This document shows, piece by piece, positions 29,111-47,104 of a stretch of DNA of 64,000 bases (positions are counted from its first letter, which is position 1; each line of letters starts with the position of its first letter). The stretch is from Pseudomonadota bacterium (GTDB lineage: Bacteria; Pseudomonadota; Gammaproteobacteria; Burkholderiales; Sulfuriferulaceae). The stretch covers positions 7,881-71,880 of the forward strand of contig JAJYMO010000031.1 in assembly GCA_021786845.1 (NCBI GenBank), written 5' to 3'. Below the pieces are notes generated by a model. The model was not told where the DNA came from, made no database searches, and was given only the letters and a program-made list of their open reading frames with translations. A program made the position numbers and the translations under genes.

Positions 29111-29112
29111 GT

Positions 29113-29676: not shown

Positions 29677-29781
29677 CCTGGGATTGGCCGCTTAATGCGT
29701 GGCTTGTTTATGACGCTGATGAGTGGCGAAGCAAATAGGCTTTCGTTGCATGTGATTACCTTAACAAACAAGTGGTTCCGA

Positions 29782-30840: not shown

Positions 30841-33181
30841 CAACAGGCCCCTTGTTGGCGTCACGCAGCGCTTGAAGAACCCTGGCAGGTGTCATGGGCA
30901 AAGTATTGATTCGGATTCCGATGGCGTTATAGACAGCGTTAGCAATAGCGGCGGCTGTCGCGATATTTGCCGGTTCGCCGACGCCATAGGCATCGGTGGC
31001 ACTCAAGCCCTGATAATTTTCCAGTACCATGACATCGATTTTTGGCAGTCCGCTTGGCCCGGCGAATTTGTAGTCGATAAAATTGGGATTCATCATGCAG
31101 CCAGTATGGGGGTCAATGATTCGCTCTTCCAATAAGGCATAAGAAATACCCATCAAGATGCCGCCGTGGATTTGGCTCTCGATTTGCAAAGGATTGATGG
31201 GCCTTCCGCAATCATGAACGGCAACCACACGTTCGATGTGTATGACACCGGTTTGTGTGTCTACCGTAACGGCCACGAACTGCACCCCACCCAAATCATT
31301 CAGTGCGATCGCTGAATCACCATTGCGGCTATGAAAGCCGGCATAGTCATCGCTACGGCTGGCGACGGCACTGATCCGGTCGGTACGCAACGTGCGGACT
31401 GCTTCTTTCCATGGGATACGTCGGGGCGGCGTGTCTGCCGACTGTACCCAGCCGTCCTGTATTTTTAATTGCTGCGGATCAAGATTCCAATGTGACGCGA
31501 CCGATTGCAGCAGCGCATTTTTGATCTGCCATGCCGCAGAGCGAGCCGGAGGGGTGATGGATGCCGAAGTGCGGCTCCCGTAAGATGGCGGCCCTGAAGG
31601 AAACTCCGTGTCGCCGATGCGTACACCAATCGCGTCGGGCTGTAATCCTAATTCCTCCGCAACAACCTGCTGGAGTAGTGTGCCGATACCGGTGCCAATA
31701 TCTTGTACGCTTGACAGCACTTCCACCTTGCCGTCTCGCCACAAACGCACTTCGCAGGCCGAGTTGATCTGAACATTAGACATCCATAGTGACTGGGCCA
31801 TCCCCAAGCCGTGTTTGATGGAGCCGGAATCAAAGCCGGGTGTTTTGCGATGCGCCCAACCAATTTTCAGGGCGCCGAGCCGTCGTTCTTCACGCCGTAC
31901 GGGGCTGAGGTCGATCACCTCACGTAACACGAGGGGGTCGAAAGAGAGCTTCTCTGCGAGTGCATCAATCGATTGCTCTAACGCAAAAGCACCTTGTGTG
32001 TTACCCGGTCCGCGCATGGCGGTGCTTGGCGATGTGTTGGTGAAAACATCAAATTGCAATGACTTAAGATTTGGGCAAGCGTAGAGAGCCATCGCAATAT
32101 CACCCACGCCTGCGCCCTGCGCAATACCGGCACTCCCCCAGGCATGCAGCGAGATGGCGGTGAGTTTGCCGTCGCGGCGGGCACCGATCCGCAAATGTTG
32201 CTGACTGGATGGACGGTTTCCACTGTCCATCTGTTCCTCATCACGCCGGTACACGAGGCGGACAGGCGCCCTGGACAGGCGTGACAGCGTGACAGCGATC
32301 TTTCCATACTGACCAAGCTGTGATTTGGAGCCAAACCCGCCGCCAATGGCCTGTGCACGGACCCGTACACGTGACAGCGGCAACTGAAAGGTCGCCGCAA
32401 GTTGCGCGCGTACGCCCGCAGTAAATTGTGTCGACATCCACACGTCCAGACCCTCTTCGCGCCAGTCAGCGACGATGGCATGCGGCTCCATGCAACAATG
32501 GGTCTGTACTTGGGTGAAAAATGTCTCTTCCACAATAAAATCCGCAGAAGAAAAACCATCGTTCACATTGCCTTGCTCCCTCTTGCTGGGGCCACGCACG
32601 TTGCCTTCAAGTGGCAGATCGGCGACGAATGGAAATCCAGCGACGGGAATATGAGCCGCCTCGTCCTGCCGATAAATGGTCGAGGCATCCGACCTCATGG
32701 CTGACTCGATATCGATGGCAAAGGGCAGGGGGTCGAATTCAACCTTGATTAACTTGATGGCGGCCTCCGCTGCAGCGAGCGTTTCCGCAGCAACGGCGGC
32801 GATGGGTTGACCGACGTAGCGCACTGCAGGTGCATGGCCGTCAGACAGCGCTTCGATCACGGTGACCACGGCACGCACGCCCAGGAAGTTGCGCGCAGGC
32901 GCAAGGTCCAAGGACCGAATTCTGGCATGAGGAAGGGGTGAGCGCATCACAGCTGCGAACAACATACCCGGCAACTGCACATCAACCGTATAACAGGCTG
33001 CCCCAGTGACTTTGCCCACGGCATCCCAGCGCGGTGTGTTGCGGCCAATAAAATTCAGATCGGCATTGGGGGCCAGCGCGGGAGGCTCACTATCGGATAT
33101 CTCACGCGTAACTTGATCCAGGCCGAGATGAGCCATGCCTGCCGATAACCGTTCATGATGTTTTGGCGTGTTGTCATTCAT
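30827..33181 (-). CDS. xanthine dehydrogenase-family molybdopterin-binding large subunit (aldehyde oxidase type)
   Basis: 784 aa; Ald_Xan_dh motifs (GGGFGSK, MGISYALLEE); operon with the 2Fe-2S and FAD subunits. Confidence 0.9.
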   Translation of the reverse strand: MNDNTPKHHERLSAGMAHLGLDQVTREISDSEPPALAPNADLNFIGRNTPRWDAVGKVTGAACYTVDVQLPGMLFAAVMRSPLPHARIRSLDLAPARNFLGVRAVVTVIEALSDGHAPAVRYVGQPIAAVAAETLAAAEAAIKLIKVEFDPLPFAIDIESAMRSDASTIYRQDEAAHIPVAGFPFVADLPLEGNVRGPSKREQGNVNDGFSSADFIVEETFFTQVQTHCCMEPHAIVADWREEGLDVWMSTQFTAGVRAQLAATFQLPLSRVRVRAQAIGGGFGSKSQLGQYGKIAVTLSRLSRAPVRLVYRRDEEQMDSGNRPSSQQHLRIGARRDGKLTAISLHAWGSAGIAQGAGVGDIAMALYACPNLKSLQFDVFTNTSPSTAMRGPGNTQGAFALEQSIDALAEKLSFDPLVLREVIDLSPVRREERRLGALKIGWAHRKTPGFDSGSIKHGLGMAQSLWMSNVQINSACEVRLWRDGKVEVLSSVQDIGTGIGTLLQQVVAEELGLQPDAIGVRIGDTEFPSGPPSYGSRTSASITPPARSAAWQIKNALLQSVASHWNLDPQQLKIQDGWVQSADTPPRRIPWKEAVRTLRTDRISAVASRSDDYAGFHSRNGDSAIALNDLGGVQFVAVTVDTQTGVIHIERVVAVHDCGRPINPLQIESQIHGGILMGISYALLEERIIDPHTGCMMNPNFIDYKFAGPSGLPKIDVMVLENYQGLSATDAYGVGEPANIATAAAIANAVYNAIGIRINTLPMTPARVLQALRDANKGPVDGIF

Positions 33182-33719
33182 GGTTGCCCTCCTGTTTATT
33201 GGCCAAGGACAACATGGCCTGTATCACATGGGGATAGGTGCCACACCGGCAAAGGTGGCCGCTGATGGCGACCTCAATTTCCGCAGCGTCAGGGTGAGGA
33301 TTGTGTGCCAAAAGGGCTGCGCAACTCATCACGATGCCGGGCGTGCAAAAGCCGCATTGGACGGCATCGTGTTCGATAAAGGCTTTTTGTACGGGATGCA
33401 GATGGTCTGTTTCGCTCAGACCTTCGATTGTGGTGATTTTTTGTGAGGTGACTTCAATTGCCAATACGCTGCATGCGGCGACAGGCAGGTCATCAAGCCA
33501 GACTGTGCAAGCAGAACACGCGCCATGATTACAGGCAACCTTTGTTCCAGTCAGGTTTAATGAAGTTCGCAGTGCCTCAGCCAGCGTCGTCCGTGGTTCC
33601 ACATCAATTGACTGTGAAACACCATTGACATTAAGCACCATTGAAACGGCGCCTGGTCCAAGAATTTCAGCGGCTGGTTTTGTTTGGTCTTTGCCAGTCT
33701 TGTGCGTTTTGTCAGACAT
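33174..33719 (-). CDS. (2Fe-2S)-binding small subunit of the molybdenum hydroxylase
   Basis: C-x4-C-x2-C (CNHGACSACTV) and CGFCTPG...CRCGTY motifs; no twin-arginine signal. Confidence 0.9.
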   Translation of the reverse strand: MSDKTHKTGKDQTKPAAEILGPGAVSMVLNVNGVSQSIDVEPRTTLAEALRTSLNLTGTKVACNHGACSACTVWLDDLPVAACSVLAIEVTSQKITTIEGLSETDHLHPVQKAFIEHDAVQCGFCTPGIVMSCAALLAHNPHPDAAEIEVAISGHLCRCGTYPHVIQAMLSLANKQEGNHE

Positions 33720-34032
33720 GTGCTAAATCCTCCGAAAACAGCTACGGATTTTTCATCAAATCAGATTTGGTGCGATATTGTTCGAGATGGGGGTATCAGG
33801 TGTTGTCAGTACCAAAATGGCCCCCGCAATGTGAAAGGAACTGGTGTAACTTTAACACACTATTTGTTGCACAGAGAGTGGGTTATATTAATCCGGGACA
33901 CAAGGGGCCTGTCATTCGACCAAATGTATTCCCGGTTTCACTGGCTTTCACAGACAGTCTTGAGGGGGCAAGGCGCTCATAAACAACAGCTGTCCCCCGC
34001 CTTGTGTGCCTAAACCTATTTACGGATGATAA

Positions 34033-34260
34033 TCAATATGTTGCTGTCCATATATCACCGATTTTTTCATATTTTTTCTTTACCGCGGACCATGCCACCT
34101 TATGCGCAGTTTCTTCCTGAGAAATGTCGCCACGGCGTTTTTCGGGACTCGCATATTCTTGCCAGGCATGATTAAAGGTTTCCCGATAAATATCCTGTGC
34201 ATGGGGAGGAAGTGCATGGATTATATTGTCCGGTAAGTCTTTATTGGTTTTATAGGGCAT
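34033..34260 (-). CDS. ChaB-family protein
   Basis: MPYKTNKDLPDNIIHALPPHAQDIYRETFNHAWQEY matches the ChaB N-terminal pattern. Confidence 0.75.
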   Translation of the reverse strand: MPYKTNKDLPDNIIHALPPHAQDIYRETFNHAWQEYASPEKRRGDISQEETAHKVAWSAVKKKYEKIGDIWTATY

Positions 34261-34331
34261 CAGATGACTCCTTGAAATTTATAGTACAATGGTGACCATT
34301 TGCAAAGTATTGGACGCTGGCTGATGATTTT

Positions 34332-35063
34332 TCAATCAATCGGTACGCCAATAGTGGCTTTGAGCACCCATTGGTCAGAGACTGCATTGAGCCCTCGGCC
34401 TATGTCTAAATTCAGATCCCACTTGTCCAGGCTGGTGTCTATCACACCCTATAACATTTGGCTGTATTGATTTAAATTGCCCAAGTTATTGGCAACACCG
34501 AGTCCATTATAACTTTCAAAACCCGGTTGCGTGACGTGCGTGACGGCATACGCCAGTTTTGTGTCCCATTCTACTGTCGTGGGTGCAGGCACTGGACCTG
34601 ATACCACCCAATCCAAATTGGAGTTTACGGCAAAAGTCCAGCCTAAATATCGCAGGCCGAAAATACCTTTGAGTTCTGCATTCCATGAGTTGGGATCTAA
34701 TTCGGTGCTGACTTTGCCAATTTCAAAATTCGCACCCCAAAAATAAATTTGACCGGTTGTTTTGGGCGCGATAAATTTGATGCGCACCTTCCCACCATCG
34801 ACTTGAGCGCCGGTGGTCGCATTGTCTGTACTTAACACATAAGCACCAAGTTCTAAATTGGGTGTGAGGTCAGATGAAAACTCGGGGGTGAAACGAAAAA
34901 GGTGAGCTGAAGGCAGTACCCCAGGGTAAGTGCCAGCATCATTGCCTGACGGAACAGTGTTGGTGTGCAGATCTAAGCCATATTGTCCCGGGGCATCCAT
35001 TTCATCCATGTAGGCCTGAATTTCTTCAGGGGCAGCAACAGCGAAGGGCGAGGTGCCGCACAT
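34332..35063 (-). pseudogene. outer-membrane beta-barrel-like gene with an in-frame TAG (34449..34451) and an incomplete signal peptide
   Basis: alternating beta-strand pattern; the frame continues 38 codons past the TAG; upstream in-frame sequence reads ...YGYRLRLILMCGTSPFAVA-APEE with no ATG/GTG before the hydrophobic core and a TAA 13 codons upstream of ATG 35063. Confidence 0.45.
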
Positions 35064-35578
35064 CAGAATCAGTCTTAATCTGTAACCATATGAATTAAAT
35101 TATAAACTTGCTAGCTTGGTGGCAAGATTTAGTCACCAAACCTTTCCGGCCACACAAGGCCAGCCCGTATGCATACTAATCGTTCTGTGTTACCTAAGCA
35201 ACATCGCATACAATATCACGCCTGCCACAAGCGACGCATTCAGTTTTTTAATCAGCTTCCCTTGCCGGATCTGCTGGCATCCGCTGACTCTCGGGGTAGC
35301 AGGGTCGGCATGTTTTTGAAGATTTATTGCCCAGTGCTGGAGACCCAAAGCGGTGGTGGGGAGGCCACCGACTGAGACGTATAAGGAAACGAAGGCATGA
35401 CAGACTGCATTGGGAGTCATAGGCAGATGAATTGTGGTTGCCCCAATTCGTTCGCTGTTGAGCCGTAGCTGTCCAAAAAATTCATCCATAATCAGTGCAT
35501 TCGCACAGAGTAGCGTGCTACAATGTTTCAACTTGAACCTTAATCCCACCCCGCCTGCTTCGTGGGCATGCAGCAACA

Positions 35579-35974
35579 ATGCCAGAATCCACGTCCACCA
35601 GCCGCCAGAGCAAGCTGCAAGAAGACACCCGTTTCAGGGTGTTGCGCCTGTTGCAAGACAACCCAAATCTGTCCCAACGTGAGCTGGCCAAAGCCTTGGG
35701 CATCAGCCTGGGTGGTGTGCACTATTGCCTGCAAGCCTTGCTGGATAAAGACTTAATCAAAATACACAATTTCCAGAGCAGCACGCGTAAGCTGGCCTAT
35801 GCTTACTTGCTCACCCCGGCAGGCATCGTCGAAAAAGCCACCCTGACCGGCCGCTTTCTCAAACGCAAAATGGAAGAGTATGGGCAATTGCGGCTGGAAA
35901 TCGAATCCTTGCAGCAGGAAAATATTGATCTCGCGCACAATGGCAAACCTCAGAATGGAAACCAGCATCCATGA
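35579..35974 (+). CDS. MarR-family EPS-associated transcriptional regulator
   Basis: RFRVLRLLQDNPNLSQRELAKALGISLGGVHYCLQALLDKDLIKI...KLAYAYLLTPAGIVEKATLTGRFLKRKMEEY, the pattern of the EPS-locus MarR subfamily. Confidence 0.75.
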   Translation: MPESTSTSRQSKLQEDTRFRVLRLLQDNPNLSQRELAKALGISLGGVHYCLQALLDKDLIKIHNFQSSTRKLAYAYLLTPAGIVEKATLTGRFLKRKMEEYGQLRLEIESLQQENIDLAHNGKPQNGNQHP

Positions 35975-36266
35975 ACAAGATCACCCCTGTCATCTTGTGT
36001 GGCGGTTCCGGCACACGCCTATTGCCGCTGTCTCGTGCGGGGTTCCCAAAACAATTTTTCGTGTTGTCGGGCACCGCAGAAGTTACCTGTGGCGACAAAG
36101 TGATCTTGCTGAAGGAAACCAATTCACCTGCGTCCCGTTGGGCGAAATGCATCGCCTGCACAATTCAGGCACCATCCCGCTGGAAATTATTGAAGTACAA
36201 TCGGGTAGCTATTTGGGTGAGGATGATATTGTGTGGTTTGATGACTGCTATGGGTGGGCTGTGTAA
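35971..36266 (+). pseudogene. manC: mannose-1-phosphate guanylyltransferase (manC/cpsB) relic: large internal deletion plus a frameshift
   Basis: N-terminus MNKITPVILCGGSGTRLLPLSRAGFPKQF joins directly to the cupin-end GTAEVTCGDKVILLKE; after a 1-nt frame change comes GNQFTCVPLGEMHRLHNSGTIPLEIIEVQSGSYLGEDDIVWFDDCYG (ManC C-terminus); ~95 codons instead of ~470. Confidence 0.8.
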
Positions 36267-36311
36267 GCAGTAATTGTTCACCCAGGTTGTCTATATGAGG
36301 TCAAAAAATGT

Positions 36312-36434
36312 GTCATTCCCGGGAAAGCGGGAATCCAGTGGGTTGAATAATTCCCGTGTAACGGGACAAAACCGGTGTCTTGTCTGCTTCGCAGCGTGTT
36401 TGTGTGGCTGGATTTCCGCTTTCGCGGGAATGAC
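36312..36434. mobile_element. 123-bp MITE-like element with 27-bp terminal inverted repeats
   Basis: gtcattcccgggaaagcgggaatccag ... ctggatttccgctttcgcgggaatgac (25/27 complementary); each arm is itself a hairpin; no coding capacity. Confidence 0.75.
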
Positions 36435-36480
36435 GAAGCTAATAGATTATTTGGGATTAATTTAGTTTTGGATACTCAAC

Positions 36481-37257
36481 ATGAAAGCAGTGATTTTAGC
36501 AGGCGGTCTCGGCACGCGACTCAGTGAAGAAACGGCACTGCGCCCCAAACCGATGGTGGATATAGGCGGCAAGCCTATTCTCTGGCACATCATGAAAATG
36601 TATTCGGCGCATGGGATCCATGATTTCATTATTTGCTGCGGCTATAAAGGTTACATAATTAAGGAATATTTCGCGAATTACTTTCTGCATATGTCGGATG
36701 TGACTTTTGATATGCAGGCCAACAGTATGCATGTTCACCAGAAACGTGCTGAACCCTGGAAGGTGACCTTGGTGGATACAGGCGATGAATCCATGACAGG
36801 CGGAAGACTTGCACGCGTGGCTGAGCATGTGAAAGACGAAGAATCCTTTTGTTTGACCTATGGTGATGGGGTGGCCGATGTAGACATTGCCGCCACGATT
36901 GCGTTTCATCGCCAACACGGTAAAGCGGCGACGCTGACCGCCACGTATCCGCCTGGGCGCTTCGGTGCTTTGGATATTCAAAACCATCAAGTCAAAAGCT
37001 TCAAGGAAAAGCCAAGAGGCGATGGCGCGCTCATTAATGGCGGGTTTTTCGTATTGTCCCCCAAGGTGTTGTCTTATATACGCGATGGCGATAACACCAT
37101 TTGGGAACAGGAACCGCTGGCACAATTGGCTGCAGACGGTGAATTGATGGCTTATCAGCACGAGGGGTTCTGGCAACCCATGGACACCCTGCGCGATAAG
37201 CATTATTTGGAAGAATTATGGGCCAATGGCAAAGCGCCATGGAAAAAGTGGGACTAA
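36481..37257 (+). CDS. rfbF: glucose-1-phosphate cytidylyltransferase
   Basis: [18 protein letters not shown]...[16 protein letters not shown]; 258 aa, colinear with RfbF/DdhA. Confidence 0.9.
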
Positions 37258-37259
37258 AC

Positions 37260-38336
37260 ATGGCAGTGAATGCAGAATTCTGGCGCGGCAAGCGCGTATT
37301 GATGACCGGGCATACCGGTTTCAAAGGCAGTTGGCTGTCTCTCTGGTTACAGTCCATGGGCGCGCAAGTGGTGGGCTATGCGCTTGTACCACCGACGAAC
37401 CCGAGTCTGTTTGACGTGGCCCAAGTGGCTCAAGGCATGACCAGTATCATCGGTGATATACGGGATTTAGAGTCATTGCGTGCAGCGTTCGGCACACACC
37501 AACCCGAAATCGTGATCCATATGGCTGCACAACCGCTGGTGCGTTATTCCTATCAGGCACCTGTTGAGACTTATTCCACCAACGTCATGGGCACGGTGAA
37601 TGTGCTTGAGGCGATACGCAGCACCGCCAGCGTAAAGACGGTAGTGAATGTCACCAGCGACAAATGTTACGATAACAAAGAATGGCTGTGGGGCTACCGG
37701 GAAAACGAAGCCATGGGCGGCTTTGATCCTTACAGCAGCAGCAAGGGGTGTGCGGAACTGGTGGCCGCAGCCTATCGAAACTCATACTTTCATCCTGAAA
37801 AATATGCAGAGCATGGCGTGGCACTGGCTTCGGCCAGAGCTGGCAACGTGATTGGCGGCGGCGATTGGGCGGAAGACCGGCTGATTCCCGATATGATGCG
37901 TGCGATCTCCCAGAGTAAGCCCGTCCATATTCGCAATCCGCATGCGATCCGTCCCTGGCAACATGTGCTTGAACCCTTGTCGGGTTACCTGATTCTTGCA
38001 CAAAAACTGTATGAAGAAGGTGCAGTTTACGGCGAAGGCTGGAATTTCGGCCCGCATGACCAGGACGCCAAACCCGTGCAATGGATCGTAGCGCAATTGA
38101 CGGCACATTGGGGCAAAGGCGCAAGCTGGACATTGGATGGCGGCAACCATCCGCATGAAGCGCATTATCTTAAACTGGATTGTTCCAAAGCGCAAGCGCG
38201 CTTAAACTGGCAGCCCAGATGGCATTTGGATGAAACGCTCAGTAAAATAGTCGAATGGCATCAAGCACATCACAACGCTGCAAACATGCGTGATGTGTCA
38301 TTGTGCCAAATTGCCCAATATAATGTGAACGGGTGA
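37260..38336 (+). CDS. rfbG: CDP-glucose 4,6-dehydratase
   Basis: WRGKRVLMTGHTGFKGSWL Rossmann motif; YSSSK catalytic motif; start at ATG 37260, 3 nt after the rfbF stop. Confidence 0.9.
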   Translation: MAVNAEFWRGKRVLMTGHTGFKGSWLSLWLQSMGAQVVGYALVPPTNPSLFDVAQVAQGMTSIIGDIRDLESLRAAFGTHQPEIVIHMAAQPLVRYSYQAPVETYSTNVMGTVNVLEAIRSTASVKTVVNVTSDKCYDNKEWLWGYRENEAMGGFDPYSSSKGCAELVAAAYRNSYFHPEKYAEHGVALASARAGNVIGGGDWAEDRLIPDMMRAISQSKPVHIRNPHAIRPWQHVLEPLSGYLILAQKLYEEGAVYGEGWNFGPHDQDAKPVQWIVAQLTAHWGKGASWTLDGGNHPHEAHYLKLDCSKAQARLNWQPRWHLDETLSKIVEWHQAHHNAANMRDVSLCQIAQYNVNG

Positions 38337-38350
38337 AATGAGGTCAAGGG

Positions 38351-38420
38351 TAGGTCAGGCTTCAGCCTGACGCGGTGATAAAAGATACGTTGAATTGTCG
38401 GGTTAAAACCTGACCTGCAA
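38351..38420. repeat. REP-like palindromic element (second family member)
   Basis: gtcaggcttcagcctgac perfect palindrome; shares a ~34-nt core and the ttaaaa..gacctgca arm with 12246..12325. Confidence 0.7.
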
Positions 38421-38478
38421 TAGTGCATGTAGTAGGCAGAGCATTGGCCTGCCTGTGGACACAAATAAGGAAATATAA

Positions 38479-38709
38479 ATGAGGCAAACAATATTTAGAG
38501 GAAATTTGTGTGTAGATGAAAACCACCAATTACACATTAACGTGCCCGCAGACATGGGTGATGAATTTGAAGTGATCGTTTTGCCTTTGCGTCCTCAATT
38601 AGCCAAAAATGCGCTGAGTGACGATGAGCAATTTATGCTTGCTGCTTATTCTGCAGTGATTGATAACGACCCCGAAGAGGATGCAATCTGGGAAAAATAT
38701 GTCAAATAA
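38479..38709 (+). CDS. putative type II antitoxin (MazE/AbrB-like N-terminus, acidic Trp-containing tail)
   Basis: 76 aa; [18 protein letters not shown] then [27 protein letters not shown]; overlaps the downstream toxin-domain ORF by 11 nt. Confidence 0.55.
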
Positions 38710-40315
38710 TTTTAAGTTCCATCCTGGCACGATTCATGTGTATAAAGTCCCCTTTGTCGAAGGGCATGCTGCCAAGCCACGTCCTGTGATCATTACTTCA
38801 TTGCCTAATAGCAAGGGTGATGTGATGGGTATTCCTGGCAGCTCACAGATGCACCAATGGAACGAAACTCATCAAGTGATTATTGACCCACGAGAGATGG
38901 CGTCCAGTGGTTTAGATAAACCCACCGTGTTTCCAATCAGTAAACAAATGGTTTTTTCCACAAGGTTTTTTGCTGGTGAAATCGGGGAAATAAACACCCC
39001 AACCCTGGAAGCAGTCATGCGTTTGATTATGGCGCATCAAGTTGAACAGTTTCACTCAGCCACGCAGCTACAAAAAGCTTTCCAACCCGGCACCACCGTC
39101 ATCCCACCCTCCGGCAAAGTTATCGGCACTGCGGAAATTCAGAACATGGTGGAAGCCTCGCTGGATGCATGGCTCACAACTGGTCGGTTTAACACCGAAT
39201 TTGAAGCCCGTCTGGCCAAATATTTGGGTGTGAAACACCTCATTACCGTCAACTCGGGTTCTTCCGCCAATCTGGTGGCGTTTTCCGCGTTGACCTCGCA
39301 CCGCTTGGGCGACCGAGCCATCAAGCCGGGCGATGAAGTCATCGGCGTGGCGGCAGGTTTTCCTACTACCGTGAACCCTATCCTGCAATTCGGCGCAGTG
39401 CCTGTGTTCGTGGATGTGGACACTGCCACCCACAACATTGATGCCAGCCTGATTGAAGCGGCGATCAGTCCCAAAACCAAAGCCATCATGCTGGCACACA
39501 GTCTGGGCAACCCGTTTAACCTGGATGCGGTCACTGCGCTGTGCAAGAAATATAAACTCTGGTTGGTGGAAGATTGCTGCGACGCTCTGGGTGCCACGTA
39601 CAACGGGCAAATGGTCGGTACTTTCGGTGACATTGCCACACTCAGTTTTTACCCTGCGCACCACATCACCATGGGTGAGGGCGGTGCGGTGTTCACCAAC
39701 AACGCCGAACTGAAAAAGATTGCTGAATCTTTCCGTGACTGGGGACGCGACTGCTATTGCCCGCCTGGCAAAGACAACACCTGCAACAAACGCTTTAGTT
39801 GGAAATTGGGCGATTTGCCCGAGGGCTACGATCATAAGTACACCTACAGTCATTTGGGCTACAACCTCAAAATCACCGACATGCAAGCCGCGTGCGGCTT
39901 GGCGCAACTGGACCGTTTGCCCGAGTTCATCGCCGCACGCAAGCACAACTATGCTTTCCTCAAAGCTCGCCTGAAATCCTGCGAAGAATTTCTGATTTTG
40001 CCCGAAGCTACGCCCAACAGCGATCCCTCCTGGTTTGGCTTCCTCATCTCCATCCGCGAAAGTGCTGGCGTGAACAGGGTGGACTTGATCAATTACCTGG
40101 ATCAAAACAAAATCGGCACCCGCCTGTTGTTTGCAGGTAACCTCACCCGTCAACCTTACATGCTGGGCAGAAATTTCCGGGTCAGCGGCGAACTTGCCCG
40201 TACCGATGAAGTGATGAACAATGCCTTCTGGATCGGCGTGTATCCGGGTTTGACAGAAGAAATGCTGGAATTTGTGGCGAGCAAGATTGAGGCTTACTTT
40301 GGGGTGGGGTTTTGA
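38699..40315 (+). CDS. rfbH: single uninterrupted ORF (538 aa): N-terminal PemK/MazF-like toxin domain (~aa 1-115) fused in frame to a complete CDP-4-dehydro-6-deoxyglucose 3-dehydrase (RfbH/DdhC, E1)
   Basis: toxin part: [28 protein letters not shown]...[18 protein letters not shown]...[12 protein letters not shown]; RfbH part is colinear from ~[48 protein letters not shown] through [41 protein letters not shown] to the C-terminus; possible internal starts at ATG 39017 and 39029. Confidence 0.8.
40145..40313 (+). repeat. rfbH 3' end, copy A of a ~165-bp direct duplication bracketing the vapBC cassette
   Basis: aligned by eye to 41206..41365 (~88% identity, one 8-nt net indel). Confidence 0.85.
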
Positions 40316-40438
40316 TGAATAATATCTGCCCCTTGTCATTCTGTTGCCGGGAACGCCGTGCATTCTATGCAAAATTCAGCTTGACAATTTAAGACTGGTC
40401 TATAAACTGGTCTGATATCAAACGGTGGGAGTCATGCC

Positions 40439-40684
40439 ATGAATATTGAAATTGGATCGTATGAAGCAAAGACGAAGCTACCCGAATTATTGCGCGGTGT
40501 GCAACTTGGCAATCGGTATACGATTACGCTTAGAGGGTTAGTTGTGGCAGAATTGATACCACCAGACATTTCCAAACAACATGCTGCTGCTGAGGCCGTT
40601 GCAGACATGCAAAGATTTATCTCGTCGCATGATGCCATGGAAGGCATTGACACGAAAGCACTGATTGAGGACGGACGGGATTGA
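40439..40684 (+). CDS. type II antitoxin, Phd/YefM-like (VapB role)
   Basis: MNIEIGSYEAKTKLPELLRGVQLGNRYTITLRGLVVAELIP, the Phd/YefM N-terminal pattern; 4-nt overlap with the PIN gene. Confidence 0.8.
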   Translation: MNIEIGSYEAKTKLPELLRGVQLGNRYTITLRGLVVAELIPPDISKQHAAAEAVADMQRFISSHDAMEGIDTKALIEDGRD

Positions 40685-41100
40685 CGCGGTTCGTTCTTGA
40701 TAACTCTGTCACGATGCGTTGGTTATTTGGCGATGGTTCGTCTAATGATCAGATTTACGCAAAACGGGTGTTGGCAGCGATTGGAGACGCAAATGTGCTT
40801 GTACCTGCGATATGGTGTCTTGAGGTTGCTAACGTGATAACCAGAGCGGAAAGCAAATATGGACTGACGGAGGCACGCAGTTCAGAATTTGTGCATGTGT
40901 TACAGCGGATGGCGATACAAGTTGATGCGGAAACTTGTCAATATGCCATGAGTGAAACCTTACAACTTGCGCGACGTTACAACTTGTCATCGTATGATGC
41001 CGCATATTTGGAACTTGCGATGAGGAAAGCTGTACCGCTTGCTACGCTGGATGATGTGCTGGTAAAAGCTGCTGATAAAATCGGCGTTAAGCGACTTTAA
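40681..41100 (+). CDS. vapC: PIN-domain ribonuclease toxin VapC
   Basis: FVLDNSV (first acidic residue), LEVANV, SSYDAAYLELA, LATLD: the PIN acidic quartet layout. Confidence 0.8.
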   Translation: MTRFVLDNSVTMRWLFGDGSSNDQIYAKRVLAAIGDANVLVPAIWCLEVANVITRAESKYGLTEARSSEFVHVLQRMAIQVDAETCQYAMSETLQLARRYNLSSYDAAYLELAMRKAVPLATLDDVLVKAADKIGVKRL

Positions 41101-41205
41101 TCACAGGAAGCGCAGGAAGCAGGGTCAGGCATTACTTTTGACATTTTGTCATTCTTATTTTAGGGCCACTTAAATTTAAAGAAAGCAATCAGAGGGTAAG
41201 ACTTT

Positions 41206-41365
41206 ACTCGCCAACCTTACATGTTGGGCAGAAACTTTCGTGTCAGCGGCGAACTCACCCGCACCGATGAATAATGCTTTCTGGGTCGGCGTATATCCGG
41301 GACTGACAGAAGAAATGCTGGAATTTGTGGTGGGTAAGATTGAGGCTTACTTTGGGGTGGGTTTT
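41206..41365 (+). pseudogene. relic duplicate of the rfbH 3' end (copy B), frameshifted
   Basis: ...[20 protein letters not shown] then stop, because gatgaagtgatgaacaatgcc became gatgaataatgc; the remainder still matches [16 protein letters not shown]. Confidence 0.85.
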
Positions 41366-41387
41366 TATTAAGAGGACGGATTTATCA

Positions 41388-43097
41388 TTGAAGGCTTCTG
41401 ACGCACTTGCTAAATTTCTTATTGCTCATCGAATTCAAACCTGTTTTGAACTGGTGGGTGGCATGATCACGCACCTTCTTGATAGTTTTGCTGAATCAGG
41501 GCAGTTCAACATCGTCTCCATGCACCACGAGCAATCTGCGGCATTCGCTGCTGAGGGTGTGGCAAGGCAGAGCAAAGGCAAAACAATGGCGGTGGCAATG
41601 GGAACCAGTGGCCCAGGTGCAACCAATTTGATCACTGGACTGGGGAGTTGCTGGTTTGATTCTGTGCCCTGTTTATTCATTACCGGGCAAGTCAACACAA
41701 GAGAACTCAAGGGTGAGCGAGCGATCAGGCAGCAAGGTTTCCAGGAGCTGGATATTGTTGAAGTGGTGCGTTCGCTGACCAAATATGCGGAGAGGGTCGA
41801 TCATCCTGATGATTTATTGCCTGCATTGCACCGCGCGTTGTCAATCGCGCTGAGTGGTCGCCAAGGCCCGGTGTTATTGGATATACCCAACGATGTACAG
41901 CGGGCGGATATTCCAGATGCATTGATCGAGAAATGGCTAAACATTCCATTGGATATTGTCCCAGGGCGTGGAATAGGTGCAAGTAACCTGAAGCAATTGG
42001 AGGCGCTGTGCAAGGATGCCCAGCGACCCTTGATTTGCATTGGCGGCGGTGCGCGATGGGCGGATGCGATGGATGACTGGCTTTTCGCCGCAGATACACT
42101 CGGCATTCCGTATGTGTCAACGTTAATGGGACATGAACGAGTGATTTCCCGTAACAACTACTTCAATATGATCGGCAGTTACGGTAATCGTGAGGCTAAT
42201 TGGGCAGTCCAGAATTGCGATGTGCTGATAGTCGTGGGCGCGCGACTTGATGTTCGGCAAACGGGTTCCGATGCGGAAGACTTTGCCCGCAATGCGCGGA
42301 TTGTCCAGATAGACATTGATCCTGCTCAATTAGATAATCGGGTGCAGGCTGACTTGAGTATCTGTTCAACGGCAGCAAGTTTTTTTAACATTTTTGTTCT
42401 CCAGGCCAGTATGTTTCCAAATATTGACCGAGCCTGGCTGGCTGAACTGTCCATACGACGCGCGCAAGCTCAGATCAATGAATATACAGATTGGGAAATT
42501 AGTCCCAGCGAGGTGTTTAAAAATTTAAATCAGAGTTTGGCGCAATACGCAGTTGATTATGTTTGCGACGTAGGTAATCACCAAATGTGGGCAGCACAAA
42601 GCCTGCGCCTGTCTCCCAATCAAGCCGTTCACTACAGCGGCGGCATGGGAGCAATGGGTTTTGCTTTGCCTGCTGCGTTTGGCGTTGCGATACAGTCTCA
42701 ACATAAAGTCATTGTTATTACAGGTGATGGCAGCCTGCAAATTAATATTCAAGAACTGGACACGCTCAATCGCTTGGGGCTGGATATGACGATTATCGTC
42801 ATGAATAACTCGGTGTTAGGTATGGTTAAAAATTTTCAGGATATGTATTTCGATGGCCGCGACCAATCAACCCGCAAAGGCTATAGCAGCCCCTCTTTTA
42901 CTGATATTGCACAAGCTTACGGCATTGAGGCTTATCGTACCACCAATGCGGCAGAGACAGATCGTGCGCTAGCGTTGATCGCTGACCACAAAGGCCCGTT
43001 ACTCATTGAGATTATGATGGATGGAGCGACGGAATGCCGGCCTCGCTTAGCTTTTGGATCGAAACTGGATGAACAGTTCCCCAAGTTAAATAGTTAG
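41388..43097 (+). CDS. thiamine-diphosphate-dependent enzyme of the acetolactate-synthase fold (YerE-like branched-chain sugar synthase by context)
   Basis: TTG start with RBS agagga; GTSGPGATNLITG; GDGSLQINIQELDT...NN TPP-binding motif; sits directly after rfbH as yerE does in the yersiniose cluster. Confidence 0.75.
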   Translation: MKASDALAKFLIAHRIQTCFELVGGMITHLLDSFAESGQFNIVSMHHEQSAAFAAEGVARQSKGKTMAVAMGTSGPGATNLITGLGSCWFDSVPCLFITGQVNTRELKGERAIRQQGFQELDIVEVVRSLTKYAERVDHPDDLLPALHRALSIALSGRQGPVLLDIPNDVQRADIPDALIEKWLNIPLDIVPGRGIGASNLKQLEALCKDAQRPLICIGGGARWADAMDDWLFAADTLGIPYVSTLMGHERVISRNNYFNMIGSYGNREANWAVQNCDVLIVVGARLDVRQTGSDAEDFARNARIVQIDIDPAQLDNRVQADLSICSTAASFFNIFVLQASMFPNIDRAWLAELSIRRAQAQINEYTDWEISPSEVFKNLNQSLAQYAVDYVCDVGNHQMWAAQSLRLSPNQAVHYSGGMGAMGFALPAAFGVAIQSQHKVIVITGDGSLQINIQELDTLNRLGLDMTIIVMNNSVLGMVKNFQDMYFDGRDQSTRKGYSSPSFTDIAQAYGIEAYRTTNAAETDRALALIADHKGPLLIEIMMDGATECRPRLAFGSKLDEQFPKLNS

Positions 43098-43113
43098 CTG
43101 GCTCATCAATATC

Positions 43114-44055
43114 ATGCAAATAGCTATTCTCGGCGCAACCAGCCAAATTGCCAAAGATTTAATCGTTTCATTTTCCACAGCGTCGAATGATGCCCTGCAC
43201 CTGTTCGCACGACGACCTGATGAAGTGACGCAGTGGCTGGACGCCGTGGGCATCAAGGCTCGCTACATCGCATCGGACTATGCCGTATTCGCTGGCCATG
43301 AATTTGATGCCGTAATCAATTTTATTGGCGTTGGCAATCCTGCGCTGGTGGTGGAAATGGGTGCATCCATCTTCGACATCACGCACCAGTTTGACGGCAT
43401 AGCGATGGACTATGTGCGTCAACACCCAACTTGCCGCTATATTTTTTTGAGTAGTGGCGCAGCGTATGGCGCACAATTCACTGAACCTGTCAGCATCACC
43501 ACGCCTGCGCTGGTACCCATCAATACACTCAGTCCCCAAGACTGGTATGGTGTGGCAAAGTTGTATGCCGAATGCCGTCACCGCGCGCAGGCTGCGCTCC
43601 CTATCATTGATATTCGCATATTCAATTATTTTAGCCGCAGCCAGGACATCGCGGCACGTTTTCTCATCACCGATATGCTGCGTGCCATTCGTGATCAAAC
43701 CGTTATGCAAACCTCCGTCGACCACATCACGCGCGACTTTCTGCACCCGACCGATTTTTACGGCTTGGTGAGCGCATTGTTGTCAGCCCCGCCAGCCAAT
43801 GCCGTGGTGGATGCCTACACGCGGGCACCGATCTCCAAATCAGCTTTGCTGGCAGCCATGCAAGAACAATTTGGTTTGCAGTATGAAGTCGCCGCAACCA
43901 CCACAAGCGTCAATGCCACAGGCGGCAAGCCACATTACTATTCGTTAAACCGGCGTGCTGCAGATTTTGGGTATCAGCCCAGCTTAACTTCGTTAGAGGG
44001 CATCATGCAGGAAGCGCATATCATGCTGTTTGACAGGTACAATAACCGTCATTGA
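43114..44055 (+). CDS. NAD(P)-dependent extended SDR (epimerase/reductase family; YerF-like by context)
   Basis: ILGATSQIAKDL Rossmann variant; YGVAK catalytic YxxxK. Confidence 0.7.
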   Translation: MQIAILGATSQIAKDLIVSFSTASNDALHLFARRPDEVTQWLDAVGIKARYIASDYAVFAGHEFDAVINFIGVGNPALVVEMGASIFDITHQFDGIAMDYVRQHPTCRYIFLSSGAAYGAQFTEPVSITTPALVPINTLSPQDWYGVAKLYAECRHRAQAALPIIDIRIFNYFSRSQDIAARFLITDMLRAIRDQTVMQTSVDHITRDFLHPTDFYGLVSALLSAPPANAVVDAYTRAPISKSALLAAMQEQFGLQYEVAATTTSVNATGGKPHYYSLNRRAADFGYQPSLTSLEGIMQEAHIMLFDRYNNRH

Positions 44056-44135
44056 CTGACCCTTGGTTATGGGGAGGTTACGATTTTCAGTGAAAAGTGG
44101 TTTGCTCCTTTTACTCAATAGAACCGAAAGGCGAC

Positions 44136-44444
44136 ATGATGAGATTAACAGAACAGCAAAGAGCGATCATTCGTGCGGCAGTGATGGAAATTTTCGGCGC
44201 TGATGCCAAGGTGTGGCTGTTTGGATCACGGGTGGATGACCACCAGCGTGGTGGAGATATTGACTTGCTGATTAAATCCCAAACTGGCGATGCAATGAAC
44301 GTAACGCGTGCTGAAATTAATTTGCAAACCATGCTACAAGCCAAACTGGGAGAGCAAAAGATAGATATCTTGCTGGATTACCCTTCACGTCTTACTTATC
44401 CACCTATTTTTCAGGTGGCGAAACAAACGGGTGTTGTATTATGA
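44136..44444 (+). CDS. minimal nucleotidyltransferase (MNT), antitoxin partner of the HEPN protein
   Basis: VWLFGSRVDDHQRGGDIDLLI (GS...DxD pol-beta NTase motif); 4-nt overlap with the downstream ORF. Confidence 0.8.
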   Translation: MMRLTEQQRAIIRAAVMEIFGADAKVWLFGSRVDDHQRGGDIDLLIKSQTGDAMNVTRAEINLQTMLQAKLGEQKIDILLDYPSRLTYPPIFQVAKQTGVVL

Positions 44445-44623
44445 CTGCCGACGTGTCTGTTTTGCGCTTACAAGATGCGTGGCGTGAATGTGAGAGAAAT
44501 GCCTATCATCTTTGCCTGGCCATTACTTTGCTTGATCCTGTTATGCCGATGACGGGTAAGATATACACACAACTCACAGATGAACAGGTACGTATTATTG
44601 ACCAGTTTATCAGTGGCGCGTAA
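44441..44623 (+). pseudogene. HEPN-domain toxin gene, 5' fragment (interrupted by IS insertion)
   Basis: reads ...TDEQVRIIDQFIS then enters IS sequence and stops; continues at 45999. Confidence 0.7.
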
Positions 44624-45997
44624 AACCTCGCCGTTCAGGGCGGGGATGGACAGCGCGGACGGCGTAGCCGTCCTTGTCTTGAAATCGCCATGTTTTCTAT
44701 GCAAAATATTGTTTTAATTGATTGTATTTAATGTAAAATTTACACATGAAACGCTTACAAGCCTACAAGTTTGAACTCATGCCCGATGGTGAGCAATCAC
44801 GCGCCATGCGTCAATACGCGGGTTGCTGCCGTGTGGTGTACAACAAAGCTTTAGCATGGCAAAACGAACAATACCAAGCCGACAACACATTCAAATTCAA
44901 CTACACCAAAATAGCTAACCTGTTGCCACAATGGAAAGCAGAGCTTGCTTGGCTCAAAGACGCGCCAAGCCAAACACTACAACAATCACTCAAAAACTTA
45001 GAATCCAGTTTTAGAAACTTCTTCGCCAAGCGTGCCGACTTCCCTAAATTCAAAAAGAAAGGTCAATCTGACAGCTTTCGCTTCCCGCAAGGCTACAAGC
45101 TTGAGCAACAAAACAATCGAATATGTCTGCCCAAGTTGGGCTGGATACGTTACCGTAACAGCCGTGAAATATTGGGTGCAGTCAAGAATATCACCGTGTC
45201 GCTCAAATGTGGCAAGTGGTATGCATCCATTCAAACCGAACGGGAAGTAGAACAAGCCAATCACCCATCCATCAGCATGGTGGGTGTGGATGTAGGCATT
45301 ACCCGATTCGCCACGCTCAGCAATGGTCAAGTGTTTGAAGCCATCAACAGCTTCAAACAAAAGCAAGCCAGACTGGCGCGCTATCAGCGGGCCCTAAACC
45401 GAAAAGTGAAATTCAGCAATAACTGGAAAAAGCAGAAAGGCAAAATCACCCAGTTACACAGCACCATTGCGAATATCAGGAAAGACTACCTGCACAAAAC
45501 GACGACCGCTATCAGCCAAAACCACGCCATGATAGTAATTGAAGATTTGCAGGTCAGCAATATGAGCAAAAGTGCAAAAGGCACTGTTGAAGTCCAGGGC
45601 AGGAACGTCAAAGCCAAATCAGGCTTGAACCGATCCATTCTGGATCAAGGTTGGTTTGAATTCAGGCGACAGCTTGAGTACAAACAAGCATGGGCGGGTG
45701 GACAGGTCATTGCGGTCAACCCACGCAACACCAGCCGTACTTGCCCTTGCTGTGGTCACATTGCCAAAGAGAATCGCCTCACGCAAGCCCAGTTCGAGTG
45801 TGTGGAATGTGGCTATGCTGAAAATGCAGACCTGGTTGGTGCAATCAACATATTGGCGGCAGGACATGCCGTGTTAGCGTGTGGAGTGACGGTGCAACAA
45901 GGCCGCGCTGTGAAGCACGAACCCGCCGAAGTGACTCAAGCAGTCCTTGCTTGAGCGCCGCAGGAATCTCCTTGCTTTAGCTGGGGGAGGATGTCAA
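44614..45997 (+). mobile_element. TnpB-only IS200/IS605-family (IS1341-type) element, ~1.38 kb; boundaries +/- a few nt
   Basis: left subterminal hairpins (cctcgccgttcagggcgggg; ggacggcgtagccgtcc); right end gaatctccttgctttagctgggggaggatgTCAA; removing 44614..45997 restores one ORF (...DQFIS-LRFTKLQD...). Confidence 0.75.
44746..45954 (+). CDS. tnpB: RNA-guided endonuclease TnpB (IS605 OrfB family), apparently intact
   Basis: 402 aa; N-terminal MKRLQAYKFELMP; RuvC motifs VGVDVGI, MIVIEDL, NADLVGAINI; zinc finger CPCCGH...CVECG. Confidence 0.9.
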   Translation: MKRLQAYKFELMPDGEQSRAMRQYAGCCRVVYNKALAWQNEQYQADNTFKFNYTKIANLLPQWKAELAWLKDAPSQTLQQSLKNLESSFRNFFAKRADFPKFKKKGQSDSFRFPQGYKLEQQNNRICLPKLGWIRYRNSREILGAVKNITVSLKCGKWYASIQTEREVEQANHPSISMVGVDVGITRFATLSNGQVFEAINSFKQKQARLARYQRALNRKVKFSNNWKKQKGKITQLHSTIANIRKDYLHKTTTAISQNHAMIVIEDLQVSNMSKSAKGTVEVQGRNVKAKSGLNRSILDQGWFEFRRQLEYKQAWAGGQVIAVNPRNTSRTCPCCGHIAKENRLTQAQFECVECGYAENADLVGAINILAAGHAVLACGVTVQQGRAVKHEPAEVTQAVLA

Positions 45998-45998
45998 T

Positions 45999-46382
45999 TT
46001 GAGATTTACCAAATTACAGGACGCAATGGGTAATCATTTGTTTCCTTCAATATTGGAATATCTGCAAGAGCCCTATGAAGATCGCCCCATGCTGGATAAA
46101 CTGAACCGTTTGGAAAAACTGGGTTATCTCATCAGTACAGAAGCATGGCAGGGCATACGCCATACCCGAAACAAATTTACCCATGATTATCCTGACGATG
46201 CAGAAAAAAATGCTGCACTCATTAATATCGCCAGTGAAGCCGCTGAGTTAATGTGCTGGATGTTGGCATCCATAGAGAAAAAGTTGCACAGAGAGCAAGG
46301 TGCATTCAAGTTGGGAAGCCCCTTATCCGTGAGCTATCCAAAACGATGGACCATGCATATCAAGGCTGGAGCGCAAAATTGA
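45999..46382 (+). pseudogene. HEPN-domain toxin gene, 3' fragment
   Basis: RFTKLQDAMGNHLFPSIL...; the HEPN Rx4-6H motif lies in GIRHTRNKFTHDYP. Confidence 0.7.
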
Positions 46383-46474
46383 AAGCTGATTGCTCGGCGG
46401 CAAACAGCGTGCGAAATTCTCCAGGGGCGGCTTGGCCTGCAAATTTTATACGGTTAACAGTAAGGTTATCAATA

Positions 46475-46592
46475 AGATGTAAATTGCCATCCTCGGTGCA
46501 ACCAGTCAAATTGCCAAAGACTTGATCGTTTCGTTTTCTGTGGCATCAAAGGACGTCCTGGACCTGTTCGCACGGCGACCTGATGAGGTGAC
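46475..46592 (+). pseudogene. divergent duplicate of the first ~118 bp of the reductase gene at 43114, with a stop at codon 2
   Basis: atgTaaattgccatcctcggtgcaaccagtcaaattgccaaagac... compared with atgcaaatagctattctcggcgcaaccagccaaattgccaaagat...; similarity ends abruptly at the IS21-like end. Confidence 0.8.
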
Positions 46593-46727
46593 TGTCAATG
46601 GCCATTAATTTTGACCCACTACTGGCCAACAATTTTGACCCGCCTTAAGGGATGGTCAAATGGCCACCGTCACTGTAGCGTTACCGCTTGTTCGCGAAAC
46701 GACGGAACCAAAATGAAGGGGTGGGTG
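46593..46727 (+). mobile_element. IS21-family-like left-end relic (terminal repeats plus the first ~6 istA codons only)
   Basis: begins tgtcaatggcc; its last ~110 bp (46617..46727) are ~90% identical to 15198..15425, the terminal part more divergent; truncated after MKGW. Confidence 0.5.
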
Positions 46728-46886
46728 TCAGGCCGCGTCCTGATTTTTCCAGTTGCCATTATTTTCAGCATCAGTGGCACAGATCAAAAAGCCTTGCCAC
46801 ATATGGGTTCGCTAAAAAACAGATGGCAAATTTACGCGCCGACTGGTGGGAGGTATTGGATGCTGTTTAACACTCTTGCAACGTAC

Positions 46887-46979
46887 TGGCGGAGAGAGAG
46901 GGATTCGAACCCTCGGTAAGGCTATAAACCCTACGCTCCCTTAGCAGGGGAGTACCTTCGACCACTCGGCCATCTCTCC
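46887..46979 (-). tRNA. tRNA-Ser (anticodon GCU), 93 nt with long variable arm and encoded CCA
   Basis: reverse complement folds as GGAGAGA acceptor / CTCCC-CTGCTAA-GGGAG anticodon arm / GAGGG-TTCGAAT-CCCTC T-arm / TCTCTCC-G-CCA. Confidence 0.9.
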
Positions 46980-47104
46980 GTGTATTGCAGTTCAATACAG
47001 GCGCGAATAGTATCCCAAGAAGTGCGTTCAGTCAAATTTTCATCGGTGTGATGTAGTTGGCGCAAGCCGGTGATCAAAAGGCCTCTGTGAAGGAGTGCTT
47101 TGAT

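Follow-up and report, generated by a model that had tools for sequence, protein, structure and literature searches.

Does the gene for a nucleotide-sugar enzyme in this genome really begin with a ribonuclease-type toxin domain, and is the small reading frame that overlaps its start the antitoxin that goes with it? The question is raised by a stretch of 64,000 nucleotides from a member of the Sulfuriferulaceae (assembly GCA_021786845.1, contig JAJYMO010000031.1, positions 7,881 to 71,880), hereafter called the window, in which an earlier note had described a PemK/MazF-type domain fused in frame to RfbH, the E1 enzyme (CDP-6-deoxy-L-threo-D-glycero-4-hexulose-3-dehydrase) of 3,6-dideoxyhexose synthesis, behind a short antitoxin-like open reading frame (ORF). 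We find this arrangement, a MazF-type domain tethered to RfbH with an antitoxin-like ORF upstream, to be supported as a conserved architecture. In our best reading, to which we assign a probability of roughly 0.6, a MazEF-type toxin-antitoxin (TA) pair is embedded in a CDP-3,6-dideoxyhexose (rfbF-rfbG-rfbH) operon with its toxin tethered to RfbH.

The anatomy of the locus was as described before. The ORF table and the raw sequence verified that a 76-codon ORF overlaps the ATG at 38699 by 11 nucleotides, and, together with the RfbH hidden Markov model (HMM), they verified that the frame opened by this ATG runs unbroken into a complete RfbH, no stop separating the N-terminal ~100 residues from the enzyme part of the 538-residue protein (Table 1). 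The mechanical start of this ORF is TTG 38660; ATG 38699 is the start aligned in nearly all homologues, with a GTG in its place in one locus (L017). The ATG falls within the conserved codons ..W-E-K-Y-V.. of the small ORF, and this position, combined with the constant overlap, is consistent with translational coupling. PemK/MazF toxins are normally stand-alone proteins of about 110 residues; here the frame continues to 538 residues, and it likewise continues in all homologues.

The enzyme part matches E1 over its full length. Residues 108-534 aligned with positions 10-436 of the 440 positions of the NCBIfam RfbH equivalog NF011936 (754.7 bits against a cut-off of 423), and the Pfam DegT match spans residues 144-530 of the fusion. 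Residues 6-437 of the Yersinia E1 (PDB 3BCX) align to residues 107-538 of the query with an E value of 6e-203 and an identity of 64% over the full length of that enzyme; the N-terminal extension beyond canonical E1 amounts to 101 residues. The full AlphaFold model, with a predicted local distance difference test (pLDDT) value of 85, gave a target-normalised template modelling (TM) score of 0.93 with 3BCX. In E1, His220 stands in for the usual lysine that forms the Schiff base with pyridoxal phosphate, and by alignment H321 of the fusion is its counterpart. The cysteines 294, 352, 354 and 362 have the spacing C-X57-C-X1-C-X7-C, which we take to be the [2Fe-2S] motif of E1, and these four residues and H321 are invariant in 57 aligned sequences. 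On these features the RfbH part appears fully functional. No gene for an E3 reductase of the rfbI/ascD type was seen at positions 29000-48000 of the window or in the whole L007 locus of Methylobacter tundripaludum; E3 may be encoded elsewhere.

A scan of one genome per species yielded 15 loci, among them those of Methylobacter tundripaludum SV96, Methylomonas methanica R-45363, Crenothrix, Gallionellales, Rhodoferax, Rugosibacter, Macondimonas and Holophaga. The fusion frame is unbroken in all 15; 14 are complete at about 538-587 residues, and the fifteenth (L014) is cut by the end of its contig. Comparison of the rfbG-rfbH junctions, which the earlier note had suggested as a check, showed that the small ORF and the fusion recur between rfbG and the RfbH catalytic part throughout this set, in L014 with only the C-terminal 32 residues of the small ORF at the contig edge, and both rfbF and rfbG lie upstream of the fusion in all loci. 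When the full protein served as query, ~58 of the 120 best RfbH relatives were fusions of 496-561 residues, mostly 530-560, and the architecture recurs in dozens of metagenomic protein clusters at 40-95% identity. This recurrence of both fusion and overlapping small ORF, in 15 loci and dozens of clusters, speaks against a recent event, and the former proposal that a toxin had lost its stop, or that a TA cassette had captured the 5' end of rfbH, is not supported.

The N-terminal domain was met with RfbH-type enzymes throughout. All 11 matches obtained with the N-terminal 111 residues as query were RfbH-junction fragments. An exhaustive profile search of 1.84 billion representatives returned 212 matches; those strong matches that were examined come from fragments of fusions, some of them with more distant RfbH-type enzymes of low or high GC content, and stand-alone MazF toxins of 105-125 residues appeared only at E ~1e-11 or weaker. 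Where the fused proteins are named, they are called only RfbH or CDP-6-deoxy-D-xylo-4-hexulose-3-dehydrase, as is WP_237218129.1 from the complete genome of Rugosibacter aromaticivorans. A few members carry PF02452 and PF01041 together in precomputed Pfam matches; the databases already contain the fusion architecture implicitly. Median pairwise ratios of nonsynonymous to synonymous substitution rates (dN/dS) were 0.09 for the small ORF, 0.105 for the N-terminal domain and 0.078 for RfbH, with dS near saturation in many pairs and the direction clear. To judge by these values of about 0.1, all three parts are under purifying selection. A midpoint-rooted neighbour-joining tree of the 120 best matches of a fused query fits one origin with loss as well as several origins. 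Between the window and its relative L003, synonymous divergence is 0.13 in the N-terminal domain, 0.31 in the small ORF and 0.57 in RfbH; this unevenness points to breakpoints of recombination within the gene, even among such close relatives.

What is the N-terminal domain? The earlier note had proposed an HMM check against PF02452 for the toxin part and PF01041 for the enzyme part, and the outcome was mixed: the DegT family matched and so did PF02452 in relatives, whereas the N-terminus encoded in the window did not match PF02452. The PemK family was matched at E <= 1 by 14 of 21 close family members (best value 4.1e-7). The variant N-terminal domains of L018 and L019, which stand at the equivalent position, scored 26.7-26.8 bits against a PF02452 gathering cut-off of 23.1, and precomputed PF02452 matches exist for the proteins P0004, P0006, P0008, P0011, P0047 and P0066. 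Because the window sequence itself fails the Pfam test, the identity of its domain rests on these relatives and on the fold. For structure prediction, alignments were built from database proteins, and the AlphaFold (AF2) model of residues 1-144 reached a pLDDT of 84.7. Foldseek with this model returned MazF proteins as all of its top 50 PDB matches (E 1.5e-6 to 8e-5, ~115 aligned columns, target-normalised TM 0.61-0.83, mostly 0.7-0.83), including MazF-mt1 and -mt3 of M. tuberculosis and the MazF proteins of B. subtilis and S. aureus. The full fusion model gave aminotransferase-fold matches only, and the domain-only model was required. The predicted N-terminal fold is a MazF/Kid/CcdB-type SH3-like barrel with a C-terminal helix. 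The catalytic pair of MazF consists of R25 and T48 in B. subtilis and of R29 and T52 in E. coli. At the provisionally corresponding positions of the family alignment R28 is invariant and position 48 is always Ser or Thr, and both positions agree with the predicted strands; 19 positions of the domain are invariant in total.

The small ORF is as constant a part of the locus as the fusion. It was found in 14 of the 14 genome loci with complete upstream sequence, where it encodes 75-114 residues and overlaps the fusion by 11-14 nucleotides; across homologues the overlap ranges from 4 to 14 nucleotides. Its C-terminus is strongly conserved. The family comprises 211 protein clusters, every named one of which is called 'hypothetical' and none of which carries a Pfam domain, and the small ORF of the window gave no match in Pfam, NCBIfam or PADLOC. 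The XF1863-type MazF antitoxins, considered in the light of a TA survey (PMC2701414), were dropped, as nothing connects them with the small protein.

The small protein varies with its neighbour. At least three types of N-terminal domain occur at the equivalent position of the fusion, and the N-half of the small ORF (38479-38598) is conserved across these types, while the C-half (38599-38706) co-varies with them. The type found in the window and the related third type (L023) pair with small-protein tails of the form ..DP(E/A)EDAIW(E/Q)KY.., and the classical PemK-type domains of Sulfuriferula (L018, L019) pair with a ..GFV..L..EEDxWNDL tail. When the window is compared with L018, the identity falls to chance level over one segment that covers the antitoxin C-half, the MazF domain and the junction helix, between flanks of high identity (Table 1). 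From this mosaic we conclude that antitoxin C-half and toxin domain were exchanged as one cassette between otherwise near-identical genes. The C-half would thus be the region of the putative antitoxin that confers specificity for the cognate toxin. Two loci have a degenerate N-terminal domain in which V17/P18, N37, K39/G40, S81 and K82 are changed, and in L020 it has no Pfam match. Both lack the small ORF, and rfbG overlaps the fusion directly. Loss of the partner in these loci (2 of 2, a small sample in which inactivity of the domain is presumed) would be expected if it were needed only while the domain is harmful.

These findings can be combined in the following model. The fusion would be made as one polypeptide from ATG 38699, and its MazF domains would probably pair on the RfbH dimer, since the MazF and RfbH families both comprise proteins that work as homodimers. 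The N-terminal domain would still be an RNase-type toxin, neutralised by the acidic, Trp-containing C-half of the small protein in the way that MazE neutralises MazF. As the toxin precedes RfbH in one frame, every frameshift, nonsense mutation or insertion by which it was inactivated would inactivate RfbH as well. The toxin would be shielded from truncating mutations because these would abolish RfbH too, and such co-loss would retain the module in O-antigen loci, which are recombination hot spots and targets of phage selection. There it might serve addiction or defence, the step of the model of which we are least certain.

Several observations weigh against a TA pair. Residues 1-106 gave no Pfam, NCBIfam or PADLOC match, with no PF02452 match at thresholds from E <= 0.1 to 1, and the family profile of the domain searched against PDB sequences gave matches at chance level and no MazF. 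The hhalign alignment that places R28 on R25 and S48 on T48 of B. subtilis MazF gave a weak match, with an E value of 0.0075 and a stated probability of 5%; since the MazF sequences in it were entered by hand, the mapping of catalytic residues is provisional. In the small-protein family no DNA-binding or antitoxin domain was recognised with Pfam or a PDB sequence profile, the latter giving matches at chance level only. No conserved operator, palindrome or promoter of its own was found upstream of the small ORF across loci, and in several of them no more than a few bases separate rfbG from the small ORF; classic autoregulated TA operons differ in this respect. The degenerate lineages retain R28 and T48, and we infer rather than observe that their degeneracy means lost toxicity. 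The association of the domain with RfbH-type enzymes only could mean a functional link to the enzyme instead of selfish addiction. Finally, the toxicity and the purpose of the module are deduced from sequence.

The main rival is therefore a domesticated role, because operator and promoter are missing, no DNA-binding domain is recognised and the association is confined to RfbH. The module would then be non-toxic, and its MazF-fold domain and small partner would be accessory parts of the enzyme, acting as a dimerisation or scaffolding unit, as a switch of E1 activity or as an RNA-binding device for feedback on rfb mRNA. We regard this as unlikely, although it is the alternative to be taken most seriously. 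The pair would be expressed as ordinary operon genes, the stand-alone relatives of the domain are distant (E no better than ~1e-11), its window sequence stays under the Pfam PemK thresholds, it is joined to RfbH through a fused helix with no flexible linker, and the constancy of the small-protein N-half while the toxin type changes speaks for a role independent of the toxin. However, the residues aligned to the catalytic Arg and Thr/Ser of MazF are kept in all types, and a coupled, dedicated partner with a co-varying C-half is what neutralisation predicts. The partner is lost exactly where the domain is degenerate, the swapping of whole cassettes would be difficult to account for if the domain were a structural accessory, and canonical RfbH, including the E1 of solved structure, works without such a domain.

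A further alternative, which we consider improbable, is a functional tether with mutual control: RfbH, according to its state, would determine whether the antitoxin tail is released and RNA is cleaved, or control would run in the opposite direction. It is conceivable because of the exclusive association with RfbH-type enzymes and the shared helix without a linker. Candidate signals are dimerisation of RfbH, the redox state of its [2Fe-2S] cluster and pyridoxamine phosphate (PMP), and binding of the CDP-sugar. If this were true, the making of a phage-receptor sugar would double as a sensor, and hijacking or blockage of the pathway would bring growth to a halt.

More doubtful by far is a local pseudo-fusion, that is, a decaying toxin gene upstream of a functional RfbH made solely from ATG 39017 or ATG 39029; initiation at these internal ATGs was part of the second reading in the earlier note. 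In the window GGAAG sits 6 nucleotides upstream of ATG 39017, the canonical E1 start lies only ~5 residues before M107, and the NCBI annotation of a 96%-identical gene (L022, 3001-4299, protein P0018) starts at this very Met and gives 432 residues. Its N-terminal domain upstream of the annotated start is, however, intact and in frame, and to judge from the sequence the short annotation is a choice of start only. Of 51 fused homologues, 23 have Met and 24 have Leu at position 107, and 3 have Met at position 111; in the alignment with 3BCX, the counterpart of position 107 is Leu6, within the first helix of canonical E1. In the models a single helix (residues 100-122/123, pLDDT >90) serves both as the C-terminal helix of MazF and as the first one of RfbH, with no linker in between. 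As the junction Met is not conserved, internal initiation does not stand as a general mechanism or conserved feature of these genes, while in this particular genome, with its GGAAG, it may occur. The pseudo-fusion is further opposed by the open frame and purifying selection in all homologues and by the invariant positions of the N-terminal domain, and ribosomes that start at 38699 meet no stop before RfbH. That a sequencing or assembly error joined a stand-alone toxin gene to rfbH by erasing a stop or frameshift is favoured by nothing beyond the prior expectation of stand-alone toxin genes and is ruled out because three independent assemblies (window, L003 and L022) carry one uninterrupted frame without an indel, with ~93% of positions identical in all three, and because the frame is continuous in all 15 genome loci, isolates and a complete genome included.

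The features of the locus are collected in Table 1. In the window the order is manC fragment, rfbF, rfbG, small ORF, mazF::rfbH, a vapBC-type cassette and an rfbH remnant, followed by genes for a thiamine pyrophosphate (TPP) enzyme and an epimerase/reductase, a gene resembling minimal nucleotidyltransferases (MNT) and an IS605-family tnpB.

Table 1. Features of the window around the mazF::rfbH fusion, with the segments of the comparison with L018
Feature	Positions	Strand	Remarks
rfbF, glucose-1-phosphate cytidylyltransferase type	36481-37257	+	Pfam
rfbG, CDP-glucose 4,6-dehydratase type	37218-38336	+	Pfam
Small antitoxin-like ORF	38479..38709	+	76 aa / 76 codons
Antitoxin N-half, window vs L018	38479-38598		72% nt identity
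Putative exchangeable specificity cassette: antitoxin C-half, MazF domain and junction helix	38599..39078	+	window vs L018 identity drop
Antitoxin C-half, MazF domain and junction helix, window vs L018	38599-39078		~42% nt identity (chance level)
MazF-fold domain + RfbH (E1, CDP-6-deoxy-L-threo-D-glycero-4-hexulose-3-dehydrase), single ORF	38699..40315	+	538 aa
Predicted MazF/PemK-fold beta-barrel	38699..38998	+	residues 1-100; R28 invariant, S/T48 conserved
Continuous predicted helix	38996..39064	+	residues 100-122; holds ATG 39017 (M107) and ATG 39029 (M111)
RfbH/E1 catalytic part	39017..40315	+	residues 107-538
RfbH, window vs L018	39079-40278 (last interval scored)		~84% nt, 95% aa identity
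Phd/YefM-like antitoxin, second, separate TA cassette	40439-40684	+	Phd match weak
PIN-domain toxin, second TA cassette	40681-41100	+	PIN E 1.6e-9
Frameshifted older rfbH 3' remnant, 171 nt	41201..41371	+	85-90% identical to 40140-40313, 8-nt deletion

Upstream of the small ORF, the window has a weak promoter-like site at 38295-38324. The spacer between rfbG and the small ORF (38337-38478) can form stable hairpins, GGTCAGGCTTCAGCCTGAC among them (-45.7 kcal/mol, z -2.9). Conservation of this spacer is confined to the closest relatives, L003 and L022; other loci have a short or an unrelated one. The Phd/PIN cassette sits between the stop of the intact rfbH and the rfbH remnant and is preceded by a promoter-like TTGACA-16-TAAACT at 40381-40408. 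The remnant continues into the TPP-enzyme gene, which reflects the ancestral order, and the Gallionellales locus L004 is colinear with the window over 41235-44013. As L004 is colinear from the rfbH 3' end into the TPP gene, insertion or allele replacement is implied as the way in which the window acquired its intact rfbH 3' end and the vapBC-type genes. The module of M. tundripaludum lies within a full O-antigen cluster that also holds wzx and a glycosyltransferase gene.

The genes that follow rfbH in the window (41325-44055) encode a TPP-dependent, acetolactate-synthase-like enzyme and a short-chain epimerase/reductase. The former we take to be reminiscent of YerE, and this likeness points to a yersiniose-type, branched-chain 3,6-dideoxyhexose as the product. 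In L020 and L021, NeuB and a TPP enzyme occupy the position of these two genes. At 44097-44623 a 115-residue ORF with the minimal nucleotidyltransferase motif ..FGSRVDDHQRGGDIDLLI.. is followed by an overlapping ORF of 60 residues; the two are possibly an MNT/HEPN-type TA pair. The same 509-nucleotide stretch, 93.5% identical, is present in L003 (856-1364) on the opposite side of the rfb genes, and the stretch hence appears mobile. Directly downstream of the sugar genes lies an OrfB/TnpB gene of the IS605 family (44746-45954; Pfam OrfB_IS605, Cas12f1-like TNB and HTH_OrfB). At the other end, a truncated manC-like fragment (35971-36434, about 30 residues of NTP_transferase) precedes rfbF, and the 27-nucleotide arms of an inverted repeat that are 93% complementary follow it at 36312-36338 and 36408-36434; L007 and L022 have a full manC at this position. 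L023 carries a 23S_rRNA_IVP-family gene between rfbF and rfbG and an AIPR (abortive-infection) gene directly after the fused rfbH (258-737 and 4127-5815), from which it follows that defence-type genes cluster around fused rfbH. Its TA, defence or mobile neighbours thus are the vapBC-type cassette, the MNT-like gene and TnpB in the window and AIPR in L023.

Whereas type II toxins usually occur as small free proteins, the MazF-type domain of this locus is covalently part of a housekeeping-type biosynthetic enzyme, with a cognate partner and exchangeable specificity cassettes, in an architecture conserved across many proteobacterial lineages and at least one Holophaga metagenome-assembled genome. 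If the domain is active, this would be a new route for the entrenchment of a TA module, in which truncation of the toxin destroys an O-antigen sugar enzyme, and it would tie TA biology directly to the synthesis of a surface sugar recognised by phages and immune systems. The locus also exposes a blind spot of annotation: the fusions go under the name "RfbH" alone and the partner under "hypothetical protein", and where a record begins at the internal Met, as some do, the domain is hidden. The idea is directly testable, as cultured hosts exist in M. tundripaludum SV96, M. methanica R-45363 and R. aromaticivorans. Our literature searches found no description of a MazF/PemK-RfbH or MazF/PemK-DegT fusion, in agreement with the earlier note, and the passages searched of the TA survey by Makarova et al. 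(2009; PMC2701414) contain no MazF-RfbH fusion.

With RfbH/DdhC/AscC enzymes (3BCX), the protein of the window shares the full-length E1 match, the His in place of Lys, the four Cys residues and the gene order rfbF-rfbG-rfbH; every feature tested agreed except for an adjacent E3 gene. It differs from them by the 101-residue N-terminal MazF-fold extension and by the dedicated small partner upstream. MazF-like folds embedded in larger proteins are not without precedent: from CalpT (CRISPR-T), the target of the type III CRISPR Lon-SAVED protease, cleavage releases a ~23-kDa fragment similar to MazF (PMC9704534). The context there is unrelated; CalpT belongs to a cyclic-oligoadenylate signalling cascade, is activated by proteolysis and has neither a fused metabolic enzyme nor an overlapping antitoxin gene. 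Chromosomal TA cassettes stabilise variable gene arrays such as superintegrons, and these resemble the present case as TA modules within recombination-prone, horizontally exchanged loci, the window having a vapBC-type cassette and an MNT-like gene beside rfbH besides; they consist of separate genes, whereas the toxin of the fusion is covalently joined to its cargo enzyme.

The closest comparison is with MazEF and PemIK (Kid-Kis; PF02452). Shared with these systems are the MazF fold according to Foldseek, the Arg and Ser/Thr at the positions aligned with the catalytic pair, an upstream antitoxin gene that overlaps the toxin start, and the co-variation of the antitoxin C-half with the toxin. The C-terminus of E. 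coli MazE is acidic and contains Trp, as does that of the small protein. The differences are that the small protein has an N-terminal domain matching no known antitoxin family and the toxin domain of the window stays below Pfam thresholds, that the pair is part of a biosynthetic operon and has no conserved promoter or operator to itself, and that the toxin has no stop and its C-terminal helix continues into a 432-residue enzyme.

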